Position numbers and translations under genes: made by a program
From: a virus
Virus record (IMG/VR): IMGVR_UViG_3300025133_009393
Length of the DNA stretch: 64,000 nt
Direction: 5' to 3' (one strand)
Shown: piece by piece, positions 4,199-23,663 of the stretch
Layout of the letters: each line of letters starts with the position of its first letter
Numbering within the stretch: the first letter of the stretch is position 1
The notes under the pieces: generated by a model
What the model saw: the letters and a program-made list of their open reading frames with translations, nothing else
The model's database searches: none
What the model was told of the DNA's origin: nothing

Positions 4199-5314
4199 CT
4201 ATTTTTCTTCTTTATCGATATCATAATAAGCTTTGGCATCTCCAGATCTATTCTCAAACTTTAAAATAATATCCTCGTCCATGATCTCCAATACCCTAGT
4301 CTTAAATTTCTCGTTCTTGAGCTTTTCTAACCATTTGCTGGCTTGGAATTTTTCTGTGCTTCCATCCTTATACACCAAATTATACCAAGCTCCTGATTGG
4401 TTCAATGATTCTGATCCTTTGATAGCTTCTAGCCAGCTTTCTTGATCTTGAATTCCAACGTCACCGCCCCACAAGATCTTAAAAGTACACTGACGGCCTT
4501 CGGTGCCGAAGCGACTCTTCTTCAACGTTGCTTTGACCTCGCAGCCAACTCGATATCCATTCTCGTCGGTAATGAAAGAGGCCTTTGCCTTGCGTTTCGT
4601 AAGCCATATACGCAGCGAGTAAGCATAATGCATTGCTTTTCCGCCAGGTGTAACATAGGGTGTGGTCATTGCTTCCGCAACGTTGCTAGTAATGTTTGTC
4701 TTTAGCTGATTCAATACCAAAAACGTTGATTTTGATGCAGCAATAGGCACTGTTAGCTTTGCCATACCCTTCGCCAGAATTCTAGGCTTAACTGCCATCG
4801 ATGATTGCGGGTTAAAGTCGCCTTCGACGTCGCTGACCGATGGTGTTAAAGCTAGAGAGTCCCATATAAAAAGCATACGATTGTCGTTTGAACCCAGTAG
4901 CTCTTCAATCGTCTCTAAAACATACTCCACACTAGGCGGCTGTAAATAAAGAATATTATTAACATCGCAGCCGGCGCTAGCTAGAAATTGAGGATCTATT
5001 GCTGATTCAGAATCAAAATATACAACATCAATTCCCATTTTTTGAGCATTCGCGGCGATTTGTGCAGCCATGTAAGACTTGCCTGAACCTTCCAAGCCAG
5101 CGATCTCTACTACCTTGCCCATGGGAATTCCCGCCAGCTGGCCCCTGCAAGTGATGCAGTCTAGCCAACGAGATCCGGTCGGGATCCAGTCTTTAACTTG
5201 TGTTGGATTATCCTTGGTCAAATCAAAGGCAACTTCCATTCCCGCCTTCTTGTTAATGAGATTTCTCATCTCTCCAATACTTAGCCTTCCCAGCTTCTTT
5301 GTCTTCTTAGCCAT
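4199..5314 (-). CDS. recA: RecA/UvsX recombinase
   Basis: WIPTGS, GLEGSGKS Walker A, YFDSE, IWDSL, LNQL, TPGGKA. Confidence 0.92.
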   Translation of the reverse strand: MAKKTKKLGRLSIGEMRNLINKKAGMEVAFDLTKDNPTQVKDWIPTGSRWLDCITCRGQLAGIPMGKVVEIAGLEGSGKSYMAAQIAANAQKMGIDVVYFDSESAIDPQFLASAGCDVNNILYLQPPSVEYVLETIEELLGSNDNRMLFIWDSLALTPSVSDVEGDFNPQSSMAVKPRILAKGMAKLTVPIAASKSTFLVLNQLKTNITSNVAEAMTTPYVTPGGKAMHYAYSLRIWLTKRKAKASFITDENGYRVGCEVKATLKKSRFGTEGRQCTFKILWGGDVGIQDQESWLEAIKGSESLNQSGAWYNLVYKDGSTEKFQASKWLEKLKNEKFKTRVLEIMDEDIILKFENRSGDAKAYYDIDKEEK

Positions 5315-5607
5315 TCTTCCTCTTTTAAATTTAACTCTTCCGTTAGTGATTCATACTCTGGTAATTCCATAGTACGATCCGGATCTTGTACACCATAGTC
5401 AATGTATGTTGGATTTCGAACAATACATTCGACTTTCTCAGCGAGAGAGATAGAAATTTCTTCTATTGCCTCTCTACTAAACTCTCCTGTCGTCTGTATG
5501 ATGTACTCTCTTTTACATGCTGTTAGTCTATTTTCTAAAATAGCTCCGGTGGCCACACCCAGTAAAAAAACAGAAATGGTTACGGCTGTGATTAATAAAG
5601 TCTCCAT
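5281..5607 (-). CDS. Small membrane-anchored hypothetical protein
   Basis: N-terminal hydrophobic helix LLITAVTISVFLLGVATGAIL; CTAATTA motif 10 nt upstream. Confidence 0.6.
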   Translation of the reverse strand: METLLITAVTISVFLLGVATGAILENRLTACKREYIIQTTGEFSREAIEEISISLAEKVECIVRNPTYIDYGVQDPDRTMELPEYESLTEELNLKEEEWLRRQRSWEG

Positions 5608-5665
5608 TGTACTAAAGTAATTAGCGCGCTTGAAGCATTTTTCAACTCGGAGTTAGTTTAGAGGC

Positions 5666-6106
5666 CTAGGCCACACCCAGTAGCTCGATTTCAAATGTAA
5701 GTGATTGGCCGGCGAGCACATGATTAAAGTCGACTGTAACATCCTTCTCGCCTACCTGCTCTACGCGTGCCTGCAGGGGGCGGCCGTCTTGATCTTGCGA
5801 AAAGACTACCGTGCCCTCTTCTATATTTTCATAGTCGGCAAACTGTTCGTTGGGAACTACATGAATCAAGTCTTCTCGTGGAAAACCATAAGCTTCTTCC
5901 GGATCCAACTTAAAACTCTTAGTTTCTCCTACCTTTAGCGAAGAGACTGCATTGTTAAATGCAGATAACATCCCTCCTTCGCCTATCGTAAAAACCAACG
6001 GCTCATTCCGCTTACGAGAGTTATCAAACTCTGTTCCATCGTCTAGTGTACCAACATAATGCACACTAACTTCTTGTCCATTTTCTAACTTCTGTTCTTC
6101 GCTCAT
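5666..6106 (-). CDS. FKBP-type peptidyl-prolyl isomerase (SlyD/SlpA-like, with insert-in-flap domain)
   Basis: VSVHYVGTLDDGTEFDNS, PEEAYG, VDFNHVLAGQSLTFEIELL. Confidence 0.92.
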   Translation of the reverse strand: MSEEQKLENGQEVSVHYVGTLDDGTEFDNSRKRNEPLVFTIGEGGMLSAFNNAVSSLKVGETKSFKLDPEEAYGFPREDLIHVVPNEQFADYENIEEGTVVFSQDQDGRPLQARVEQVGEKDVTVDFNHVLAGQSLTFEIELLGVA

Positions 6107-6131
6107 TATATATTAATCCTTTTTAAATAAT

Positions 6132-6155
6132 AAGGCACCTGTAATCCCGTGCCTT
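6132..6155 (-). terminator. Stem-loop after the ssb gene (terminator or processing site)
   Basis: AAGGCAC-GGGATTACAG-GTGCCTT followed by ATTATTT. Confidence 0.5.
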
Positions 6156-6169
6156 CCTGCGGCTTAACT

Positions 6170-6907
6170 TTATGACAAAAGTTCGTTGAACGCCTTGTCA
6201 ACTGCATTCTGAGAGCCACCAGAGGAGTACTTTGTAGTCTCCTCAGAGGAAGCTTCCTCTCCCAGCAAGAACTCATCCAGCATAGCCTGTACTTGTTCCG
6301 GAGTCTTACGCTCAAACAACGTATTAAAATCAGGAATCTGATCCAGAGCAGCTGCTGTTGCCTCCTCGGTAGGCATTAAGCCAGAAGATCGACGTCGGGG
6401 AGTGATACTAGTCTGCGGAAATTGTGCTCCCGGCGGCTTTCCGTAGTTAATCACCAAGTCTGTACCATTCTCGGAATCAGTGATATCACCATAATCAGGG
6501 TTTAAGACCAGATTAAGCAACTCAGCATATGCTGTTTTGCCAAAGCCCCACACACGTACACCCTTCTCTTCCTCGCCTCGTACAATGACGGGTGAAAAGA
6601 AGCGTTGGCGAGCCGAAAGAGACTTAGCCATCTTGATGCTCTCTTCTGTACCTTCGTTGTACAGATTACGCACGAATGAATCGAGCGGATCATCTTCTCC
6701 GAAGTTTCTCTTCGGGCTTAAGAAGCCCGGGTTCTTACCCACGTTGTAGTGGAACCAAAAATCCTTGAAAGGGTCGCCATCTGGAGTTGGGACAATACGA
6801 ATTGTCGTCTCTCCGTCCTGCGGACGCCAAAATAGTTCCTTGTTGCCGTTTCCTTTATTTTGGAGAGCTGCGGCCTTTGCTCTCATCTTTTCCATATCAA
6901 TACCCAT
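6170..6907 (-). CDS. Single-stranded DNA-binding protein (T4 gp32-like)
   Basis: FWRP..TIRIVP..PF..HY, GVRVWGFGK, YGDITD..GTDL, acidic C-tail; start moved to ATG 6907 behind SD AAGGAG. Confidence 0.85.
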   Translation of the reverse strand: MGIDMEKMRAKAAALQNKGNGNKELFWRPQDGETTIRIVPTPDGDPFKDFWFHYNVGKNPGFLSPKRNFGEDDPLDSFVRNLYNEGTEESIKMAKSLSARQRFFSPVIVRGEEEKGVRVWGFGKTAYAELLNLVLNPDYGDITDSENGTDLVINYGKPPGAQFPQTSITPRRRSSGLMPTEEATAAALDQIPDFNTLFERKTPEQVQAMLDEFLLGEEASSEETTKYSSGGSQNAVDKAFNELLS

Positions 6908-15695: not shown

Positions 15696-18482
15696 CTAGG
15701 CTCCGGAGGCCTGCTTGACAGCTTTTTTAACCAAGGGAACGAAATCATGCTCTCCTATTTGTAAGTAGAACGTATACTCGTTTTTGCCAATACCTGCTTG
15801 GCCGCGGCCAGTTGTTGTTCCAGGAGCTGCAGCCGTCGTAAGGGCACCAGGGCGGTTGGGGCCCTCGGCAGCTGACATCGCTCCTGGCGCAAACTTAGTT
15901 GCCATAGCTGGAGATGTTATTTTTTCAGCTGCAAATCCAAATTTTTCAGTGGCATTTGCAAATTCAATATAAGTATTGATCTTTTTACCTTCCATACCTT
16001 CAGCCAAGCTAGCCAATTCAGTGACATGTTCTTTCATATTAGCCAAGTTTACGCCGCCGGCTTTTGCGATCTTGCCTAGTCCGCCAAACATTTCTCCCAG
16101 AGCAGCCACACCGTTATTATCAAACGTTTTCATAGCTAGGCCAATCATGGCAATACCAGCTGCCATTGCTGCGAAGCCGCCAAGAGCAAGATACGCGACG
16201 ATGGCCATCTTTGCAGCTGTGAAAGCAAGAATTGCCATACCAGCTGACATTGCTAGCATGCCCAAGCCAGCTTCAATTGCGTTGTTACCTAGCATTGTAA
16301 AACCTAGAGCTATTAAATAGATACTACCACCGATCATTAACATCGCAGCGCCGACGGCCAACAAGGGCAGCGAAGCAATAGCGCCGGCTTTGGCCACAAA
16401 CAGCATGCCTATGGCCAGCGCACCCATTGCCCCAATCAGACCAAAAATTACTGGAATGGCGGCTCCGGCGCCTTTGTCAAATTGTTGAAAAGCGCTGGCA
16501 AGAGTAAAGAATGCCTCTGCAACCAAATATACAGCAGCGCCGAAGCCGGCTAACGCAACACCAACAGCAGCAATTGTTGCCGCCTTGCCCAACATGGCTG
16601 CATTTTTAGCAGCTCCAGCAGCTCCAGCTACGCCGCCGGCTGTTTGTGCAGCATTAAGCTCAGTCTGCGCGACGACTTCTGCCTGTATCAATCCAATTCG
16701 TGTATTTCTTGCAGCTACATCGGTTGCATCATCAACTTTTCTTTCAGTGGCGGCCGCCATGCGCGCAATATTCTTGACCATGTCGGCGGCTGTTTCGGCG
16801 GCTGTGAGGGCGAGGCCTCTTTTTTTCCACAGCACTATCCCTCGCCACACGACGGCCATGAAGACCAAACTAGGCACCAACCCGCCGGAGAGCATATCAT
16901 TGAGTTTTGAAAATCCTACAAGAAGGTCGCGGGCCTTCTCGACGATTGGCTGAAGGTCGGCAGCAAAATTTTGCAAGATAACTTGTCCCATTTTAAATGT
17001 ATCCATAGCCTTCGAGGCCTGCTCTTCCATTCGTTTTGTCGAAGCAGCATTTAAGTTTTGTTTAGATATCATGTCATCATAACCAGACAAGCCCTGCTTA
17101 AGCATTGTTTGCGCCAAAGCCATATCCTTGATACCGGCAGCTGCCGCAAAAGCTTTAGGTCCAAATTTCGTTGCCAACAATTCAGCCTGCATGCCTGAAG
17201 CTTCAATTGATTCCAGGGTCATTCTTATTCTTTCTTCTTCGCTAGCTTGCATCATTTCAACAGTGCCTATATACTGGCCGCCTAAGAGCGCATTCATTCT
17301 AGCAGCTGCTGTGGCGGCGCCTTCAAATTGATCAAATTGAGATGTAAAGTCTAGCTGCGCACCTACTGTAGTTTTCAACGCAACAGCAGAAGCCGATATT
17401 TTGCCAAAAACTTCCATCATTTGATCGCCATAATGAGCCAGCTGGCTAGCAGCCTGAGCGAAATCTTCTTGTATTGCTTTGGCTGATTTTCCAATACTGT
17501 CTGCCAATCCGTATAACTGTTTTGTTAGTTTTTCAGCTTGTGGGCCTGTTTTTCCTAGGGCACCCATCATAAAATTGATGTTCTTTGATGCAATGCCGGC
17601 ATCAACACCCGATTTTTCTATGACGGCGACCAAATTTGACATTGAGTCTTGTGCCTCTTTCGCCATAAAGCGAAATCCACCAATAGTAGAATCCAATGCC
17701 GCATAAGCAGCTGCCGATTCCTGCACGGAAATTCCATTCCTCTGGTTAGAGAAGGCCATTCGTCGTATTTGCTCATCATACTGGCCGCCCGAAGAAGTTG
17801 CTTTTTCAAATCCAGCAATTGCAGTTGCATTTGTCACCATAAGCGACAATGTCGCTTCTTGTAACTTCATTGCAGCTGAGCCGGCAATATTATCCATATT
17901 GAACTGTACTCTCAAGCTCTTGCCGACTTCTTTAATTGTCTGTCCAAATGAAGCAGTACCGGTTTTGGCAACTAGAAAGCTGCCTACCAGTGTTCCCTTC
18001 CAAGATTCAGTAACCGTTGCCAGTTCGCCGACAGCATCAGCTATTTTTTCAGCTTGGCTAACCAGCGCTGCTTTTGCTCTAATCTGCTCATGGTGGAGCG
18101 CGATTTGTTTTTGGAGATTTTCCAGTTGTTGGTCGTCAAGTGCTAGAATCTCACTCATCATATTGCGTTGTTCAATGAGCGCTGCGCGCTCGGTTGAACT
18201 CAACTTGGCCATCTCTTCTGCATTTTGCTGTAATTTGTTTATGCTTTTCAGCTCGACGGCAGCTTTTTCTTTGACGGTTTCGAGGTCGCCTTCTACGAGA
18301 CTATGCATTTTCTCTGCATTTTCAACCAAACTTTGAAGAGTTTCTAATTCAGCTTGGCGGCCTAGAAATATTTCGCCTTGCATTTCTCGCAAACGAACAT
18401 TAGCATCAGCAAGAGTTCTTGTACTCTCTACTTGCTGGGCTAGTAAATCTGCCTTTAGTTGTTCAACTGTTTCGTCGGCCAT
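15696..18482 (-). CDS. Tail tape measure protein
   Basis: 928 aa, Ala/Gly-rich, helical, with hydrophobic repeats; position after tube and chaperone genes. Confidence 0.85.
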   Translation of the reverse strand: MADETVEQLKADLLAQQVESTRTLADANVRLREMQGEIFLGRQAELETLQSLVENAEKMHSLVEGDLETVKEKAAVELKSINKLQQNAEEMAKLSSTERAALIEQRNMMSEILALDDQQLENLQKQIALHHEQIRAKAALVSQAEKIADAVGELATVTESWKGTLVGSFLVAKTGTASFGQTIKEVGKSLRVQFNMDNIAGSAAMKLQEATLSLMVTNATAIAGFEKATSSGGQYDEQIRRMAFSNQRNGISVQESAAAYAALDSTIGGFRFMAKEAQDSMSNLVAVIEKSGVDAGIASKNINFMMGALGKTGPQAEKLTKQLYGLADSIGKSAKAIQEDFAQAASQLAHYGDQMMEVFGKISASAVALKTTVGAQLDFTSQFDQFEGAATAAARMNALLGGQYIGTVEMMQASEEERIRMTLESIEASGMQAELLATKFGPKAFAAAAGIKDMALAQTMLKQGLSGYDDMISKQNLNAASTKRMEEQASKAMDTFKMGQVILQNFAADLQPIVEKARDLLVGFSKLNDMLSGGLVPSLVFMAVVWRGIVLWKKRGLALTAAETAADMVKNIARMAAATERKVDDATDVAARNTRIGLIQAEVVAQTELNAAQTAGGVAGAAGAAKNAAMLGKAATIAAVGVALAGFGAAVYLVAEAFFTLASAFQQFDKGAGAAIPVIFGLIGAMGALAIGMLFVAKAGAIASLPLLAVGAAMLMIGGSIYLIALGFTMLGNNAIEAGLGMLAMSAGMAILAFTAAKMAIVAYLALGGFAAMAAGIAMIGLAMKTFDNNGVAALGEMFGGLGKIAKAGGVNLANMKEHVTELASLAEGMEGKKINTYIEFANATEKFGFAAEKITSPAMATKFAPGAMSAAEGPNRPGALTTAAAPGTTTGRGQAGIGKNEYTFYLQIGEHDFVPLVKKAVKQASGA

Positions 18483-18495
18483 AGAAGTTTAAATC

Positions 18496-18840
18496 CTATT
18501 CAAATGGCCATTTAAGACCAGTCTTTCTTTCAAATTTGCGCGTAGCTTGATCAAGCTTAGCTTTGCTCTTATAAGTTTTTGCATCGTTTAAACCAAATTC
18601 AGAAACTGCATCTAAATATTTTTTCTCTCCTACCAGCGCGGTGCTAAAAGCCTGAACCTGGGAAGGGGTACCTTTGATTCGAACGTTGGAAGGGATTCCA
18701 GCTTCTCTCCAAAACATTCTTCGAAGAATATGCTTAATTCCGTATCCCAACAATCCTAAAAAGCTCTCGTTTACTTCGCCTCTGCTTTTTGCATTTAAAT
18801 CAATTACGATTGGGGCAAAATTATCTTCTTTAATATCCAT
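18496..18840 (-). CDS. Hypothetical protein
   Basis: 114 aa, GGAG SD, ACTATTTA motif at 18865-18872. Confidence 0.7.
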   Translation of the reverse strand: MDIKEDNFAPIVIDLNAKSRGEVNESFLGLLGYGIKHILRRMFWREAGIPSNVRIKGTPSQVQAFSTALVGEKKYLDAVSEFGLNDAKTYKSKAKLDQATRKFERKTGLKWPFE

Positions 18841-18878: not shown

Positions 18879-18909
18879 TAAAATAAAAGACCAGACATAA
18901 GCCTGGCCT
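18879..18909 (-). terminator. Rho-independent terminator after the gp51-like ORF
   Basis: AGGCCAGGC-TTAT-GTCTGGTCT followed by TTTATTTT, immediately after the TAA at 18910-18912. Confidence 0.75.
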
Positions 18910-19101
18910 TTATCTTCTTGCCTTTGAGGCCGCTTCTTCATGAGCCTCTTTTTCCATCTCAAATTGCTTTTGCAATCTTTGTACATACCACATTCGAATT
19001 ATAGTTGGCAAGTTATATGCTTCCAAGAAACCCCATCCACCATGGTATTTCAATAAAAACAATTGCTCATATACATTCTGAATATAATCACTACTTAGGC
19101 C
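18910..19101 (-). CDS. gp51-like tail/baseplate chaperone segment without its own start codon (frameshift extension of the upstream gene)
   Basis: GLSSDYIQNVYEQLFLLKYHGGWGFLEAYNLPTIIRMWYVQRLQKQFEMEKEAHEEAASKARR*, in the +1 frame relative to 19091-19957. Confidence 0.75.
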   Translation of the reverse strand, partial: GLSSDYIQNVYEQLFLLKYHGGWGFLEAYNLPTIIRMWYVQRLQKQFEMEKEAHEEAASKARR

Positions 19102-19957
19102 AAAAAAAGTCCGAGGTAAACGGCACCTCCATGTCTTTCTCGTAGAAGCACGTCGAACACGTGAACGGTTGCGTCAAGTCAACCGTTGGAATACTTTTAG
19201 CATATTCTTTTCTTAGAAATCTTGAATCCATCGCCGGCATATTGTCAACGAAGTCATTAATAAAATGCTGATTTGTATTCTCATTAATTGAAGTAATAAT
19301 CATCTTCAATTGGTTAGTAAGCAAAGACGAAACTTTCTCAGTATTCTTGTTTCTAATATTGCTTTTGTTAATTAGCTGATTTTCTTCCTTGCCTGTTAAC
19401 ATGCGCACTGAAACTGTTGCGTTTGTTCTGGGCAATTGCACTTCAACGAAGCCTTCCTCGTTTATTTCTATTCCCTGTTCTGATAGGGCATCTGCCGTAA
19501 CTACTTTTGCATCTTCAAGATCAAACTCGTGATCTTGCGAAGACCCGCATGCAGGACAAGAAACCTTTGTTTGATATTGCGGACCATAGCCAGTCACTCT
19601 GGCGCGAATAACAAGCGCATTCTTATCACACACCAGCATATCATTTACTTTCACTCTCTTGTCAAGCACTATATTTTGTAGAAATCTATCTAAAGCAATT
19701 CCTTTTCGCAATAAAGCCTGTGAAGTTAATATATCCTCATCTTTAGCTGTCATGAATCGAATTTCTAAGCTATCTTGGCCGGCCAAAGGATGGCCCTCTG
19801 GATAAAATTTACCCTGAGATGGCAAATCAACAAACTCTGTTGGAGCTGGCATCTGAAAAGATGCCGGTTGATTCTCTTGCTTAAGAAGATCGGGCATGGG
19901 AAGATCGGACGGGGTGTTCAGTGCGCCCGTGCGTTCTTCATTATTTCTCGCACCCAT
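19091..19957 (-). CDS. Baseplate hub assembly / tail chaperone protein (T4 gp26-like)
   Basis: VDLPSQGKFY, IRFMTAKDEDIL, D..ALVIRAR..YG, CPAC, CSTC, ends ..DFFWPK. Confidence 0.85.
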   Translation of the reverse strand: MGARNNEERTGALNTPSDLPMPDLLKQENQPASFQMPAPTEFVDLPSQGKFYPEGHPLAGQDSLEIRFMTAKDEDILTSQALLRKGIALDRFLQNIVLDKRVKVNDMLVCDKNALVIRARVTGYGPQYQTKVSCPACGSSQDHEFDLEDAKVVTADALSEQGIEINEEGFVEVQLPRTNATVSVRMLTGKEENQLINKSNIRNKNTEKVSSLLTNQLKMIITSINENTNQHFINDFVDNMPAMDSRFLRKEYAKSIPTVDLTQPFTCSTCFYEKDMEVPFTSDFFWPK

Positions 19958-20035: not shown

Positions 20036-20617
20036 TTACCTGGGAGTTTTGTCTCCCGCGGTGTTGACCGCCCAGTCATAACGGAAAGTAACATCTAGAG
20101 AAACCATTCCGTCTCCGGAATAATCTAGATCTCCCCACTTTATGTCGGTAGGCCAAGCATTCTGAAGCCACCAACTTTCTGAAGTCTCAGTGTTGGGGCT
20201 GCGTTCGGAAGACGGGCCACCCTTGGAGGTCAAAGTTTTAATCTGAATCATGTTAAATGCACTAGTAGCGTCTGCTTTTGTGATGGTTCTCTCTGTGACC
20301 AGTTGAGCATTAGTCGGTATGACATATCCCATGTTAAGAAGTGACTCATAAAGACCGCGAGTCATATCGTTTTGGCCGCCTGGGTCAACAAACGATATCG
20401 TAACCGGCTCCCACTCCGCAACACCTGGATAATAAAAAGTATGATTTAAATATTTATGTGGAGTCTCCCCAATCTTTACGCCCGGTCGGGAGGCTTTGGT
20501 AGCATAAAATTGTCCATTGCCGGGGAGGCCTGGAATCATGACGATAAATTTATATTGTCTCTTTGGCTCTACGTGGGCTTGCGCCCAGAAGAAGCTATTT
20601 CCTGGTTTTCCTGCCAT
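20036..20617 (-). CDS. Tail tube protein (T4 gp19-like)
   Basis: EPKRQYKF, YYPG..WEPVTISFVD, WWLQNAWP..WGDLDY, VTFRYDWA; follows the sheath gene. Confidence 0.9.
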   Translation of the reverse strand: MAGKPGNSFFWAQAHVEPKRQYKFIVMIPGLPGNGQFYATKASRPGVKIGETPHKYLNHTFYYPGVAEWEPVTISFVDPGGQNDMTRGLYESLLNMGYVIPTNAQLVTERTITKADATSAFNMIQIKTLTSKGGPSSERSPNTETSESWWLQNAWPTDIKWGDLDYSGDGMVSLDVTFRYDWAVNTAGDKTPR

Positions 20618-20678: not shown

Positions 20679-23663
20679 TTAATCTTCAAACGAAGCGCCG
20701 GATCTTGTGATTACGAAATCAAGTGCAATGAACTCGATGGCTCGGGCAGGCTTGAGGAAGATCTTTGCATACATGATGTTTCTATCAATCAAGTCTTCGG
20801 TCGTAGTTGTCTTGTCCAGCACAACCCTGAAATCGGTTAACCCTAGTCCAATCTTAATCTCTTGCAAGAACGGCACGGCTCGACCGGTAAAGTTAGCCCA
20901 AGTTGCAGGAACGTTCTGTTCAAATAAGGTAGTTGCTGCAATTCGTGATATCTCTTTCTTGATGAAGATCATCAATCTTCTCACATTGATTCTATCTAGC
21001 GCAGAACGAGTCACCTGAAGCGTCTTTTGGCCGAAGATTACAATACCTTCTGCCGGGAAAGTGGCAATTGGGTTAATGTTTGCCTCATAAAGATCGTCTC
21101 GCATTTCTGATGTCAGGCGTTCACGGACAGCGATGACTGGAACGCCGGCAGAGCCTTCTGTTAAGCCGCCGCGAGTAAATCCTGCGGGAGCGAACCATAA
21201 AGCTGATTTTGCCTGTGAGCTGGCCATCGTACCAATGCCGGCAATTGATGGCGGTACCCACAACATTGCGCCGTTGATCGTATCTCGAATTCGAATCCAG
21301 GGATAGTACGCACAAGCGTAACTTGAATTCATCGAGCGATCTTTTAGGTTATCAATGGTGGCGGTGCTGCCACCAAAGGTCTCGGTACCAGATTCCCAAG
21401 TAGGCTGATACCCACCCTTAAGGTCGACAACGGCTATAGCGTCGCCACGGTCCTCACAAGTATTTATCAGATGACTGGTGAGGCCTTCGTGCCAAATCCC
21501 AGGCATTGAAGCCATGTTCATCTCCACAACTTCAGGATCAGAGATACTATCGATTGCTTTCTTGACGCTGTGGAAGGGGCTACTAGTCTTCTGACTAGTG
21601 TCTTCCATACTCGTGTTATTGAAAGGATCTCTTTCGGTGATATTTACACCATCGAAGCCGCCGGCCAGAGGCATAGTAAAGCGATCATAGCCGGCATCAA
21701 GAATATCCTTGTAGGATCCAGACCAGGCAGTAACCGAATTTCCAGTACTGCGACTTCCGCTTGAATAATGTACCAAGCCGTCTTCGTCTGCGCGCAAATC
21801 ATCTAGCGTAAAGATAAATGAAGTTTCTTTTGAGGCGTCGGCCATATCGGTCGACAATCGTCGGGCAACGTCTCGGTTACTTCGATCAAAATTAACGCCG
21901 TCGGCCGTCTCTCTAGAATCATATCCCCAATAAGCATCTTTCTCGCTGCCCAAGTTGCTATCAACAGACCCACTTCGTAAAGTGAATCTTGGGAATTCAA
22001 GTTTAATATCTACGCCTTCTGCGGGGCCGTCGTAGTTGACACCGCCGGTCCCAGCGTCATTGTTCAAGCTCATAACAGCGAAAGCTGTTGGCGAGGAAGA
22101 TGCCATCTGCGCGGTATTAGCGTTGTTGGCTGCAATTTGAAGCGCTTTGACAACTGTTGCAGCACCCATAACATAGGCGTCGGAGTAAGCAGTCGCTTGA
22201 TTGTGCTTGTCCATGGCTGTAACTTTAGTAGATACAAGCTTAAAGTCTTTTGGTTTTTCTGGGCCGTAGTAGCCGAATGGAAGAAGCAGGGGATCTGCCG
22301 TACCAGCATCGACATCGGAAGCTAATTGAACACGAATGTATTTCGACTGATTCCTATAGTTGCCGTACTCAATATATCTCTTAGTGCCCTCATCCCAGTC
22401 AGTATAGGCGTCGCCTATTTTTTTGCCGACATAATTTACAGAATTCGGATTCAAGTTGCAGCTGGTAAATCTTTCCAATACTTTGACGGCCCCGTCGTTG
22501 TCGTCAAGTCTTCTCACGATGACAGTGAAGGAGCCATATGGATCTGCTGCGCTTCTAGCTAGTTTGACATCTTGAACCGAAATCTTAAGATTGTTCTGTG
22601 CCCACTCTCCACTGTCTAACGTCACTAATCTAAACAACTTTGAAGTATGGCTTGGGTGCGTAGTGGGGTCGAAGCCGCCTTCGGGGACATTGACGCCGGC
22701 AGCATCAGAGTGTGACCGTAAATCCTGTGAAATAACCCAACCGGTTGTGGCTCGCTGTGCGCCTTCTCTGTGGTGTTGCCAGCCTGAAGTACCGTTGCCT
22801 AGGCCAAAAACCACACCAACAGATTCGCCGGCAGCAGTGCCGGTCGATAAGTCATTCACAGCTTTATCGTAAGTCTCGCCTAGCCAATAAGTTTCTCTAT
22901 TTTCTCTATTCCTAGCCTGATTGCTGGTCAAAATTGGATTAGTGTTTAAAACTTTACGAATGTATTTGTTGCTATTCTTGTTGAAGTTAAAATCAGTCTT
23001 CTTAATAATAGCACCGTCAGCGTCTCTAATCACTCCGGTAAAAGTATTTTTAGCTGCCTTATTGTAAATAAGGGTACAATTGGCTTCGGCCTTGGCCTCG
23101 GCGGCTCCCGGAATGGTACCGCTAAGAGCAAAAGATCCTTCTGTCAAATAAATGACAGCAGCTAATGAGCCGGTGACATCGCCGGCACCACCATTTGTAG
23201 CACCCGAGCCAGAAGGAGCAATGAACAAGCCGTATGCACCACCTTTGGTGGCCGGGGCCGTACCAATTTCTGCGCTGGTACCAACGGCGCCTTGGAGCCA
23301 AGTTTCCCAGCCACCATAGCCAGAATAAGCCTGTTTTTGAGGGTGTTCTTCACCTAGGAGACGTACGTATGTTAAAGGAGCAGCATTTCGTAACCAAGCT
23401 TGAGCGGCATACATGCCATACATCGGGGTAGTATTGTTTCCTTCCCTCCAAACGTCGCCACCCTGTCCTCCGGGGACAGGTGTGCCGAAGACATCTACGA
23501 ATTCGGAAAATGACTCAACCCTAACAGGTCGCATGCTCGGACCTTTGGGGGCGCGGCCAATAATTACGGGACCTATGGGGTCGCCAATATCAGGTAATTG
23601 GGAATTATCGATCTCATCGATAAAAATGCCGGGGGATACAAACTTAAATTTTTTAACAGACAT
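20679..23663 (-). CDS. Contractile tail sheath protein (T4 gp18-like), 994 aa
   Basis: FVSPGIFIDEID, WFAPAGFTRG, INPIATFP, FGQKTLQ..SALDRINVRRL, KPARAIEFI. Confidence 0.95.
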   Translation of the reverse strand: MSVKKFKFVSPGIFIDEIDNSQLPDIGDPIGPVIIGRAPKGPSMRPVRVESFSEFVDVFGTPVPGGQGGDVWREGNNTTPMYGMYAAQAWLRNAAPLTYVRLLGEEHPQKQAYSGYGGWETWLQGAVGTSAEIGTAPATKGGAYGLFIAPSGSGATNGGAGDVTGSLAAVIYLTEGSFALSGTIPGAAEAKAEANCTLIYNKAAKNTFTGVIRDADGAIIKKTDFNFNKNSNKYIRKVLNTNPILTSNQARNRENRETYWLGETYDKAVNDLSTGTAAGESVGVVFGLGNGTSGWQHHREGAQRATTGWVISQDLRSHSDAAGVNVPEGGFDPTTHPSHTSKLFRLVTLDSGEWAQNNLKISVQDVKLARSAADPYGSFTVIVRRLDDNDGAVKVLERFTSCNLNPNSVNYVGKKIGDAYTDWDEGTKRYIEYGNYRNQSKYIRVQLASDVDAGTADPLLLPFGYYGPEKPKDFKLVSTKVTAMDKHNQATAYSDAYVMGAATVVKALQIAANNANTAQMASSSPTAFAVMSLNNDAGTGGVNYDGPAEGVDIKLEFPRFTLRSGSVDSNLGSEKDAYWGYDSRETADGVNFDRSNRDVARRLSTDMADASKETSFIFTLDDLRADEDGLVHYSSGSRSTGNSVTAWSGSYKDILDAGYDRFTMPLAGGFDGVNITERDPFNNTSMEDTSQKTSSPFHSVKKAIDSISDPEVVEMNMASMPGIWHEGLTSHLINTCEDRGDAIAVVDLKGGYQPTWESGTETFGGSTATIDNLKDRSMNSSYACAYYPWIRIRDTINGAMLWVPPSIAGIGTMASSQAKSALWFAPAGFTRGGLTEGSAGVPVIAVRERLTSEMRDDLYEANINPIATFPAEGIVIFGQKTLQVTRSALDRINVRRLMIFIKKEISRIAATTLFEQNVPATWANFTGRAVPFLQEIKIGLGLTDFRVVLDKTTTTEDLIDRNIMYAKIFLKPARAIEFIALDFVITRSGASFED

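Follow-up and report, generated by a model that had tools for sequence, protein, structure and literature searches.

A probable +1 frameshift site at the end of a gp26/gp51-family gene in a metagenomic phage and its relatives

Phages with long tails characteristically carry a frameshifted chaperone pair. To our knowledge, phages of the T4 type have seemed to do without one, and for the hub “catalysts” of T4, gp26 and gp51, we know of no mechanistic frame; what these two proteins do in hub assembly has been unclear for decades. Here we describe a stretch of DNA of 64,000 nucleotides (nt) from an uncultured marine phage (IMG/VR virus record IMGVR_UViG_3300025133_009393; the whole stretch is called the window below) that carries a gene of the gp26/gp51 family (Pfam PF12322) encoding 288 amino acids (aa) and, overlapping its 3′ end in the +1 frame, an open reading frame (ORF) of 63 codons. 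An earlier note on this DNA, made from the sequence alone, had claimed that a programmed frameshift joins the two, as an analogue of lambda G/GT. The comparative evidence supports this claim, with the +1 ORF present in 79 of 79 related metagenomic loci and the frame switching at a conserved run of U residues. That the junction is a conserved recoding site is very probable on this evidence, and the combined statement, that ribosomes slip +1 at this site, is one we consider probable.

How does the locus compare with the systems described so far? In phage lambda, gpG and gpGT reportedly come from a frameshift that is conserved in tail assembly chaperone genes, as work credited to Levin et al. in 1993 and to Xu, Hendrix and Duda in 2004 (ref. 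38 of PMC9024508) is said to have established. The likeness is one of layout: the ORFs overlap between the tube gene and the (here putative) tape measure gene, the second has no start, and a slippery run lies where they overlap. For the present locus we propose, from sequence, two products with a common N terminus, the short one major and the long one minor. In this respect, a probable recoding site in the position between tube and putative tape measure, the analogy drawn in the earlier note is supported. The differences are that the shift here would be +1 and not -1, at UUU UUU UGG, where neither a heptamer logic nor a downstream structure is seen, and that the shared part is a 288-aa protein with a PF12322 domain and two Cys pairs rather than a gpG-sized protein of ~140 aa, with an extension of just 63 aa.

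The direction of the proposed shift brings other systems into view. Both prfB, the gene for release factor 2 (RF2), and yeast Ty1 contain +1 frameshift sites, CUU_UGA_C and CUU_AGG_C, respectively. There, as proposed here, the P-site tRNA slips +1 to an overlapping cognate or near-cognate codon, and the site of one relative, Flavobacterium phage immuto (CUU_UGG_C), differs from that of prfB by a single base. Unlike in prfB and Ty1, the A-site codon here is a sense codon, for Trp, rather than a stop or one known to be rare, and unlike in prfB, the Shine-Dalgarno-like element lies 20 to 26 nt upstream rather than 3 nt, with no autoregulatory logic evident. Recoding other than -1 in phage tail or structural genes also has reported precedents, namely, a -2 frameshift in phage Mu, attributed to Xu et al. 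(2004), and a +1 frameshift in a structural gene of Listeria phage PSA, attributed to Zimmer et al. (2003; ref. 24 of PMC9024508); +1 and -2 lead into the same frame. The differences from these two are that the PSA shift takes place at a Pro codon beside a stop, in another protein family, and that the Mu chaperone is not a PF12322 protein. Full-text literature searches, the scope of which was papers other than subscription-only ones, returned no report of a frameshift in a PF12322 gene or of gp26/gp51 as a G/GT pair.

The junction and its conservation

The 288-aa gene encodes a PF12322 protein, that is, a member of the T4 gp26/gp51 family. Its product matches the Pfam profile at 4e-16 (59.8 bits, with a cut-off of 24.5) over profile positions 8-219 of 219 and residues 44-286, and it also matches PHROG 150, “baseplate hub.” Since the PF12322 domain finishes where the frame-0 ORF finishes, the +1 ORF adds to the domain rather than completing it. 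Every gene in the window is on the minus strand, and none of them is a second copy of PF12322.

On that strand, the gene ends TCG GAC TTT TTT TGG CCT AAG TAG, with a T7 run at 19108..19102, so that frame 0 stops 4 codons past the run. Read from 19101, the +1 frame begins GGC CTA AGT ... and continues for 63 codons (19101..18913) to a TAA at 18912..18910, which sits within a terminator-like hairpin (18911..18886) followed by a T-run. This frame has no ATG, GTG, or TTG from its upstream stop to a TTG at 19062, use of which would lose 13 residues. The gene end with its U7 run (19102-19108), the 63-codon frame with a terminator at once after its TAA, and the lack of a start before the internal TTG had all been claimed beforehand, and a re-reading of the minus strand bore them out. 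The conceptual long form would consist of 285 + 63 aa, about 348 aa, with the junction ...DFF-GLSSDY....

In IMG/VR, 285 stretches encode relatives of the protein; 80 loci were kept, 79 of which reach far enough to be informative, and 64 of these are nonredundant and were used for junction counts. In 79/79 of these related metagenomic loci (43-74% identity), the PF12322 gene is accompanied by an extension-like peptide in its +1 frame, a conserved extension of 58-89 aa. The 9-mer at the junction is TTTTTTTGG in 59/64 loci and TTCTTTTGG in the other 5 (TTT TTT TGG versus TTC TTT TGG), so that TTTTGG is invariant. Conservation of the second TTT, at 64/64, includes its wobble base, whereas other Phe codons of the same genes are TTT at a baseline of 72%. 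Wobble periodicity, measured as information content per column, follows frame 0 until the run is reached and, starting with the first base beyond it, frame +1. Within the overlap, the frame-0 residue after the Trp varies (Pro in 50 loci, Ser in 11, Val in 2, and Ala in 1) while the Gly-Leu of the +1 frame is found in 64/64, which argues that the +1 frame is under selection already 5′ of the frame-0 stop.

Might all this come from a homopolymer sequencing or assembly error in what is really one gene of 350 aa? Homopolymer runs are error-prone, but the same frame relation is seen in 79 independent assemblies and in five isolate genomes, and frame 0 closes with a conserved short tail of 3-4 codons. 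Because so many independent assemblies agree, such an error is for practical purposes excluded.

A second alternative is that the extension is a small protein in its own right, which is how gene callers annotate it; ribosomes would start on it by unconventional initiation, or would terminate at the frame-0 stop and then reinitiate. Databases contain hundreds of such short ORFs, and a Shine-Dalgarno-like GGAGGU is conserved 20-26 nt upstream. The extension does not have a conserved start codon, however. Before the Gly-Leu, the +1 frame has no ATG, GTG, or TTG in 14/64 loci, the window included, and no ATG in 40/64; the candidate start position shared most widely occurs in at most 26/64; and the frame is closed no more than 27 nt upstream in 16/64. 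The lack of a usable start together with the nearby closed frame implies entry from frame 0, within a stretch of ~15-27 nt that holds the run. Also at odds with a separate protein are the onset of conservation at the codon abutting the run, 5′ of the frame-0 stop; the scattered positions at which called ORFs begin; the lack of a near-cognate start at a usable distance from the Shine-Dalgarno-like motif; and the existence of in-frame fusions, described below. We regard this alternative as highly improbable. As in frameshifted chaperone pairs, then, the second ORF overlaps the first and has no conserved start of its own, and a slippery run is conserved in the overlap. The check on homologous loci that the earlier note had called for gives the same answer: the U-run is kept (in full in 59/64), and the extension has no conserved start codon.

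The arrangement also extends well beyond the metagenomic loci, and it recurs far too often for chance. A DNA search of phage isolates with a 2.3-kb query gave no match. None of the closest isolates is a relative of T4 in the strict sense. Phages Mel-JY01, immuto, RM378, SP-15, and LIS04 and the metagenomic locus L089 (Table 1) each have a +1 ORF of 60-80 codons with related sequence. The order of sheath, tube, PF12322 gene, small gap or ORF, and long tail gene is common to Mel-JY01, immuto, SP-15, and LIS04, and the long tail gene is annotated as the tape measure in immuto and LIS04. A frameshift is marked in none of the five public isolate records, where the extension appears as a small ORF with an arbitrary start or as a gap.

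The proposed slip and its rivals

We propose that most ribosomes would stay in frame 0 and stop four codons past the run, giving a gp26-like short form of 288 aa. A minority would slip +1 while the P site holds tRNA-Phe paired with the second UUU in GAC UUU UUU UGG; the slipped tRNA would re-pair on the UUU one base 3′, and reading would go on with GGC CUA .... The slip would add a 63-aa helix-loop-helix tail to give a long form of about 348 aa with the architecture of gp51. If lambda gpG/gpGT is a guide, the pair may cooperate in assembly of the tape measure, hub, and tube, and both would be absent from the virion. What the sequences show is the anatomy of the junction, its conservation, the frame switch, and the natural in-frame fusions; we infer the ribosomal nature of the slip, its +1 direction, its efficiency, and the chaperone role.

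The invariant core of the site is UUU_UGG, with CUU_UGG in immuto. Re-pairing of the P-site tRNA one base 3′ is possible on UUU_U in 64/64 loci, on CUU_U in immuto, and on UUU_C in SP-15. In immuto, tRNA-Leu on CUU can re-pair on UUU, as in prfB. The earlier note had left the direction as +1 or -2. A Mu-like -2 ribosomal frameshift on UUU UUU U, giving ...DFFF-GLSS..., would enter the same frame as +1, and in 59/64 loci U7 lets tRNA-Phe re-pair perfectly two bases back; in the five TTC TTT TGG loci, though, tRNA-Phe would land on UCU, while in SP-15 (TTT TTT CAC), LIS04, and L089 a +1 slip suffices, and there is no downstream structure of the type that usually drives backward shifts. The five TTC TTT TGG loci and the TTT CTT TGG of immuto allow a +1 shift and do not allow a clean -2 shift or polymerase slip, and +1 is therefore favored. 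Of the two directions in the note, +1 is the more probable, and -2 we judge very unlikely.

Synonymous constraint is strong 5′ of the run, as judged against codon use in the same genes. At single upstream positions, the Glu codon is GAG in 47/47 loci (baseline, 40%), the Val codon is GTG in 32/46 (16%), the Pro codon is CCG in 40/64 (62% versus 16%), and the Thr codon is ACG in 26/59 (44% versus 14%); the Asp codon directly 5′ of the run is GAC in 49/53 (92% versus 33%). With GAC instead of GAU, the run stays seven long and a -1 site, U_UUU_UUU, is lost. Positions 19109-19123 (minus strand), just 5′ of the run, are strongly enriched in G- and C-ending codons, and a Shine-Dalgarno-like sequence, AUGGAGGUG (19124-19136, minus strand), is held by synonymous codon choice. 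Among the relatives, GGAGGU(G) lies 20 nt 5′ of the shift codon, or 26 nt in one clade, and is found at -29 or -35 in nearly all loci. A spacing of 20-26 nt is too distant, so stimulation of the prfB type does not apply, and no known stimulator spacing fits. A candidate 4-bp hairpin, CCGU/RCGG, ends 2 nt 5′ of the run and is weakly supported, with 76% of cells paired versus 74% in shuffles.

These upstream features bear on a further rival, slippage of RNA polymerase on T7, in which transcripts would lose one U or gain two and ordinary translation would give the long form. The homopolymer is kept beyond what UUU_U needs (first TTT in 59/64 versus the 72% baseline), G-ending codons are enriched upstream, among them the CCG and ACG just mentioned, and in the window a 6-bp hairpin (19129..19113) stands just 5′ of the U-run as in an intrinsic terminator. 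Seven U residues are short for efficient slippage by bacterial RNA polymerase, however, and in 5/64 loci and in immuto the run is cut to U4 or U3 with the two-frame arrangement kept. Nor is the hairpin of the window conserved, and the smaller 4-bp hairpin is weakly supported. Polymerase slippage is thus, in our estimate, unlikely. The 6-bp hairpin itself, GAGGU...ACCUC (19113-19129, minus strand), is followed by GGAC and U7 in a terminator-like arrangement and was seen in the window and in one other locus, L008.

Several observations weigh against a simple +1 ribosomal slip. Over-conservation of the first TTT suggests that the whole of U7 matters, which fits a -2 shift or polymerase slippage too; the preference for a full U7 may arise because the E-site tRNA-Phe could shift as well in most loci. 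The A-site codon is the sense codon UGG, which is not known to be slow here, and UAC, CAC, or AGU in distant relatives. Conserved RNA structure was found neither downstream nor upstream, with an RNAalifold energy of 0 for all segments and a median z of -0.2 for upstream single-sequence folds, and a Shine-Dalgarno sequence at the 3-nt spacing known to stimulate +1 shifts was not found. A phage tRNA reading four bases was considered and rejected as the source of the shift: the window has no tRNA gene, and the tRNA genes of its relatives are only for Thr, Ile, Arg, and Leu, with none for Phe, Trp, or Gly.

The predicted extended protein and its relation to gp26 and gp51

Does the long form exist as a protein architecture anywhere else? 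A profile built from the extension matched 696 among 1.84 billion representative proteins. The best 150 are nearly all ORFs of 38-165 aa, and the matches begin at scattered positions, often inside the profile, as is expected because gene callers produce such ORFs where a true start is absent. Two proteins from different sources carry both parts in a single frame. In the first, P0147 (313 aa), PF12322 spans residues 31-226 and the extension 235-296, and the Phe run is missing where they join; the second, P0154 (316 aa), is 50% identical to it. In both, a tail of about 50-60 aa directly follows PF12322, as it would in the conceptual long form, and these natural in-frame fusions show that domain plus tail is a real protein architecture. 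Scans of viral and metagenome sequences for the context of P0147 found only distant, frameshifted relatives. A word-index search with the extension gave two clusters, both without a Pfam assignment, and among four-letter words for finding fused proteins none was specific to the site. One further database ORF, P0016 (126 aa), combines the extension domain with an Hsp90-like N-terminal stretch that is under the Pfam cut-off; a chimeric contig or an artifact of gene calling is the probable cause.

The same two architectures occur in T4. PF12322 matches gp26 (208 aa) over 1-206, that is, as the domain alone, and gp51 (249 aa) over 1-201, after which there are 48 residues more. With gp26 as the domain alone and gp51 as domain plus tail, the short and long products proposed here have the architectures of gp26 and gp51. 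Both T4 proteins are listed as hub assembly chaperones (Leiman et al. 2010, PMC3004832, Table 2). A complete relative of the window's phage, 186 kb in size, has a single PF12322 gene, whereas T4 has two. From these sequence comparisons, T4 looks like a two-gene version of the short/long pair, a reading we regard as well supported. It differs in that genes 26 and 51 are neighbors that are divergently transcribed, with no frameshift, and are located beside genes 27-29 rather than after the tube gene. The description of the downstream ORF as “gp51-like” in the earlier note fails for the ORF as a whole and applies only to the C-terminal tail of gp51, ~48 aa in length.

Is the extension homologous to that tail? 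A newer Pfam family, PF28602 (Gp51_C), is present in T4-like gp51 proteins, and in the ESM Atlas 11 of the 30 clusters nearest the extension carry it too (score of 0.93, 185/256 features shared); the reciprocal search was uninformative. Full-length profile comparison of the conceptual long forms with the gp51 family is collinear through the tail (E value, 2e-5). AlphaFold models of P0147 and a T4-like gp51, with mean predicted local distance difference test (pLDDT) scores of 90.4 and 92.6, agree in secondary-structure topology after the second Cys hairpin, both predicting a short helix, a helix of 14-17 residues, a loop, a helix of 5-6 residues, and a long terminal helix. The tails of the two models also match many helix-loop-helix chains in common. 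Other results count against homology. Sequence similarity between the two tails is not significant, with hhalign E values of 0.65 and 0.2 for the extension alone against T4 gp51 or its C-terminal family; in a controlled truncation, the tail contributed just 1-2 score units to the full-length comparison; a search of the T4 genome with the extension profile found no candidate; and the helix-loop-helix is a widespread shape. The extension and the gp51 tail are likely homologous, on grounds other than E values, and this is less certain than the shared architecture.

Structural comparison of the domain itself points, suggestively, to tail assembly chaperones. In a VIA-align search of 48,161 chains with the P0147 model, 3FGX ranked 1 (Z of 6.1, root-mean-square deviation [rmsd], 3.6, 83 residues aligned), the HK97 protein 2OB9 ranked 3 (Z of 5.5, rmsd of 3.6, 79 aligned), and YqbN, 3KLU, ranked 7 (Z of 5.2, rmsd of 4.3, 85 aligned). 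All three align on model residues 1-97, with ~80% of the target chain covered, and all three (3FGX being Rbstp2171) are described as the solved phage tail assembly chaperones (PMC9603447). A Foldseek search of BFVD returned many “baseplate hub” proteins from diverse myoviruses. The predicted N-terminal domain thus weakly resembles three solved tail-assembly-chaperone folds. The fold link is treated as suggestive because Z scores of 5-6 are in the middling range of the tool and the T4-like gp51 model reaches just 3.8 against 3FGX, which speaks against it; Foldseek against the PDB gave nothing significant (E value, 2.9), and a PDB sequence profile search gave only chance zinc-finger matches. We regard as well supported the inference that the PF12322 gene, which lies between the tube and putative tape measure genes, encodes a tail or hub assembly chaperone.

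The locus and what the site may mean

From 5′ to 3′ on the minus strand, the order is sheath, tube, 288-aa PF12322 gene, +1 ORF, terminator-like hairpin, 114-aa ORF, and 928-aa gene (Table 1). The PHROG 4542 tube gene is directly 5′ of the PF12322 gene, and the gene at the syntenic 3′ position is the one annotated as the tape measure in immuto and LIS04. In the window, the corresponding 928-aa protein has an N-terminal coiled coil and hydrophobic Ala/Gly-rich stretches, but it matches nothing in Pfam, PHROG, or NCBIfam and shows no BLASTP similarity to the tape measure of immuto. We call it a putative tape measure from position, size, and composition only, a point that counts against the lambda-like reading of the locus. 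The product of the sheath gene is unusually long, its sheath-domain matches are limited to the last ~290 residues, and the N-terminal ~700 are without an assignment; its match to a second profile, Phage_sheath_1 (3e-4, 21.1 bits), is under the cut-off of 31.4. For the 114-aa ORF, no family was found in Pfam, PHROG, or NCBIfam, and its slot is filled in Mel-JY01 and immuto by small, unrelated-looking ORFs. In L089, two adjacent tube-like genes (4902-6276; 186 and 266 aa) 5′ of the chaperone gene share an N-terminal FWT(K/S)xPSKDPK and are possibly a pair of tube paralogues.

Table 1. Features at the chaperone locus of the window and extension regions in distant relatives
Feature	Source	Coordinates	Strand	Remarks
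Tail sheath gene, 994 aa	Window	20679..23663	-	Pfam Phage_sheath_1C, 1.2e-7, 32.1 bits (cut-off 26.9)
Tail tube gene, 193 aa	Window	20036..20617	-	PHROG 4542, tail tube protein, 1.2e-18
PF12322 gene, frame 0, 288 aa (short form)	Window	19091..19957	-	Pfam T4_baseplate and PHROG 150
Shine-Dalgarno-like GGAGGTG	Window	19124..19130	-	20 nt 5′ of the shift codon
Proposed shift site, UUU UUU UGG	Window	19100..19108	-	Proposed P-site UUU 19105..19103, re-pairing on 19104..19102
+1-frame extension, 63 codons + TAA	Window	18910..19101	-	Predicted C-terminal helix-loop-helix tail of the putative long form
Terminator-like hairpin and T-run	Window	18886..18911	-	11-pair stem, 4-nt loop, TATTTTAT tail
114-aa ORF	Window	18496..18840	-	Between chaperone gene and putative tape measure
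Putative tape measure, 928 aa	Window	15696..18482	-	Basis: position, size, composition
Extension, Microcystis phage Mel-JY01	L081	5734-5970		+1; junction AAC TTT TTT TGG CCT AAG TAA
Extension, Flavobacterium phage immuto	L082	5720-5943		+1; junction AGC TTT CTT TGG CCT
Extension, Rhodothermus phage RM378	L095	4698-4874		+1; junction TCC TTT TTT TGG AAT
Extension, Bacillus phage SP-15	L094	4741-4940		+1; junction GAA TTT TTT CAC
Extension, Listeria phage LIS04	L096	4702-4933		+1; junction GAG TTT TTT AGT
Extension, metagenomic locus	L089			+1; junction GAG TTT TTT TAC

Taken jointly, these observations incline us, by a modest degree, to a reading with three parts. (i) PF12322 proteins would be the long-missing tail assembly chaperones of T4-type phages and of many large phages with contractile tails. 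(ii) The ancestral state would be a single frameshifting gene with a G-like and a GT-like product, and T4 gp26 and gp51 would be such a pair fixed as paralogues. (iii) In the lineage of the window, the shift would be a bare +1 slip on UUU_UGG, which an upstream element, Shine-Dalgarno-like or GC-rich and of a kind new for +1 shifts, possibly tunes.

What would such a site mean for these phages? For annotation, it would correct hundreds of phage genomes in which the extension is now either overlooked or entered as a small ORF whose start is arbitrary. For recoding, a simple and widely conserved natural +1 site would join the short list for bacteria and their viruses. For tail assembly, a conserved +1 shift that turns a gp26-type into a gp51-type protein would link the frameshifted chaperone pairs with the hub catalysts of T4.

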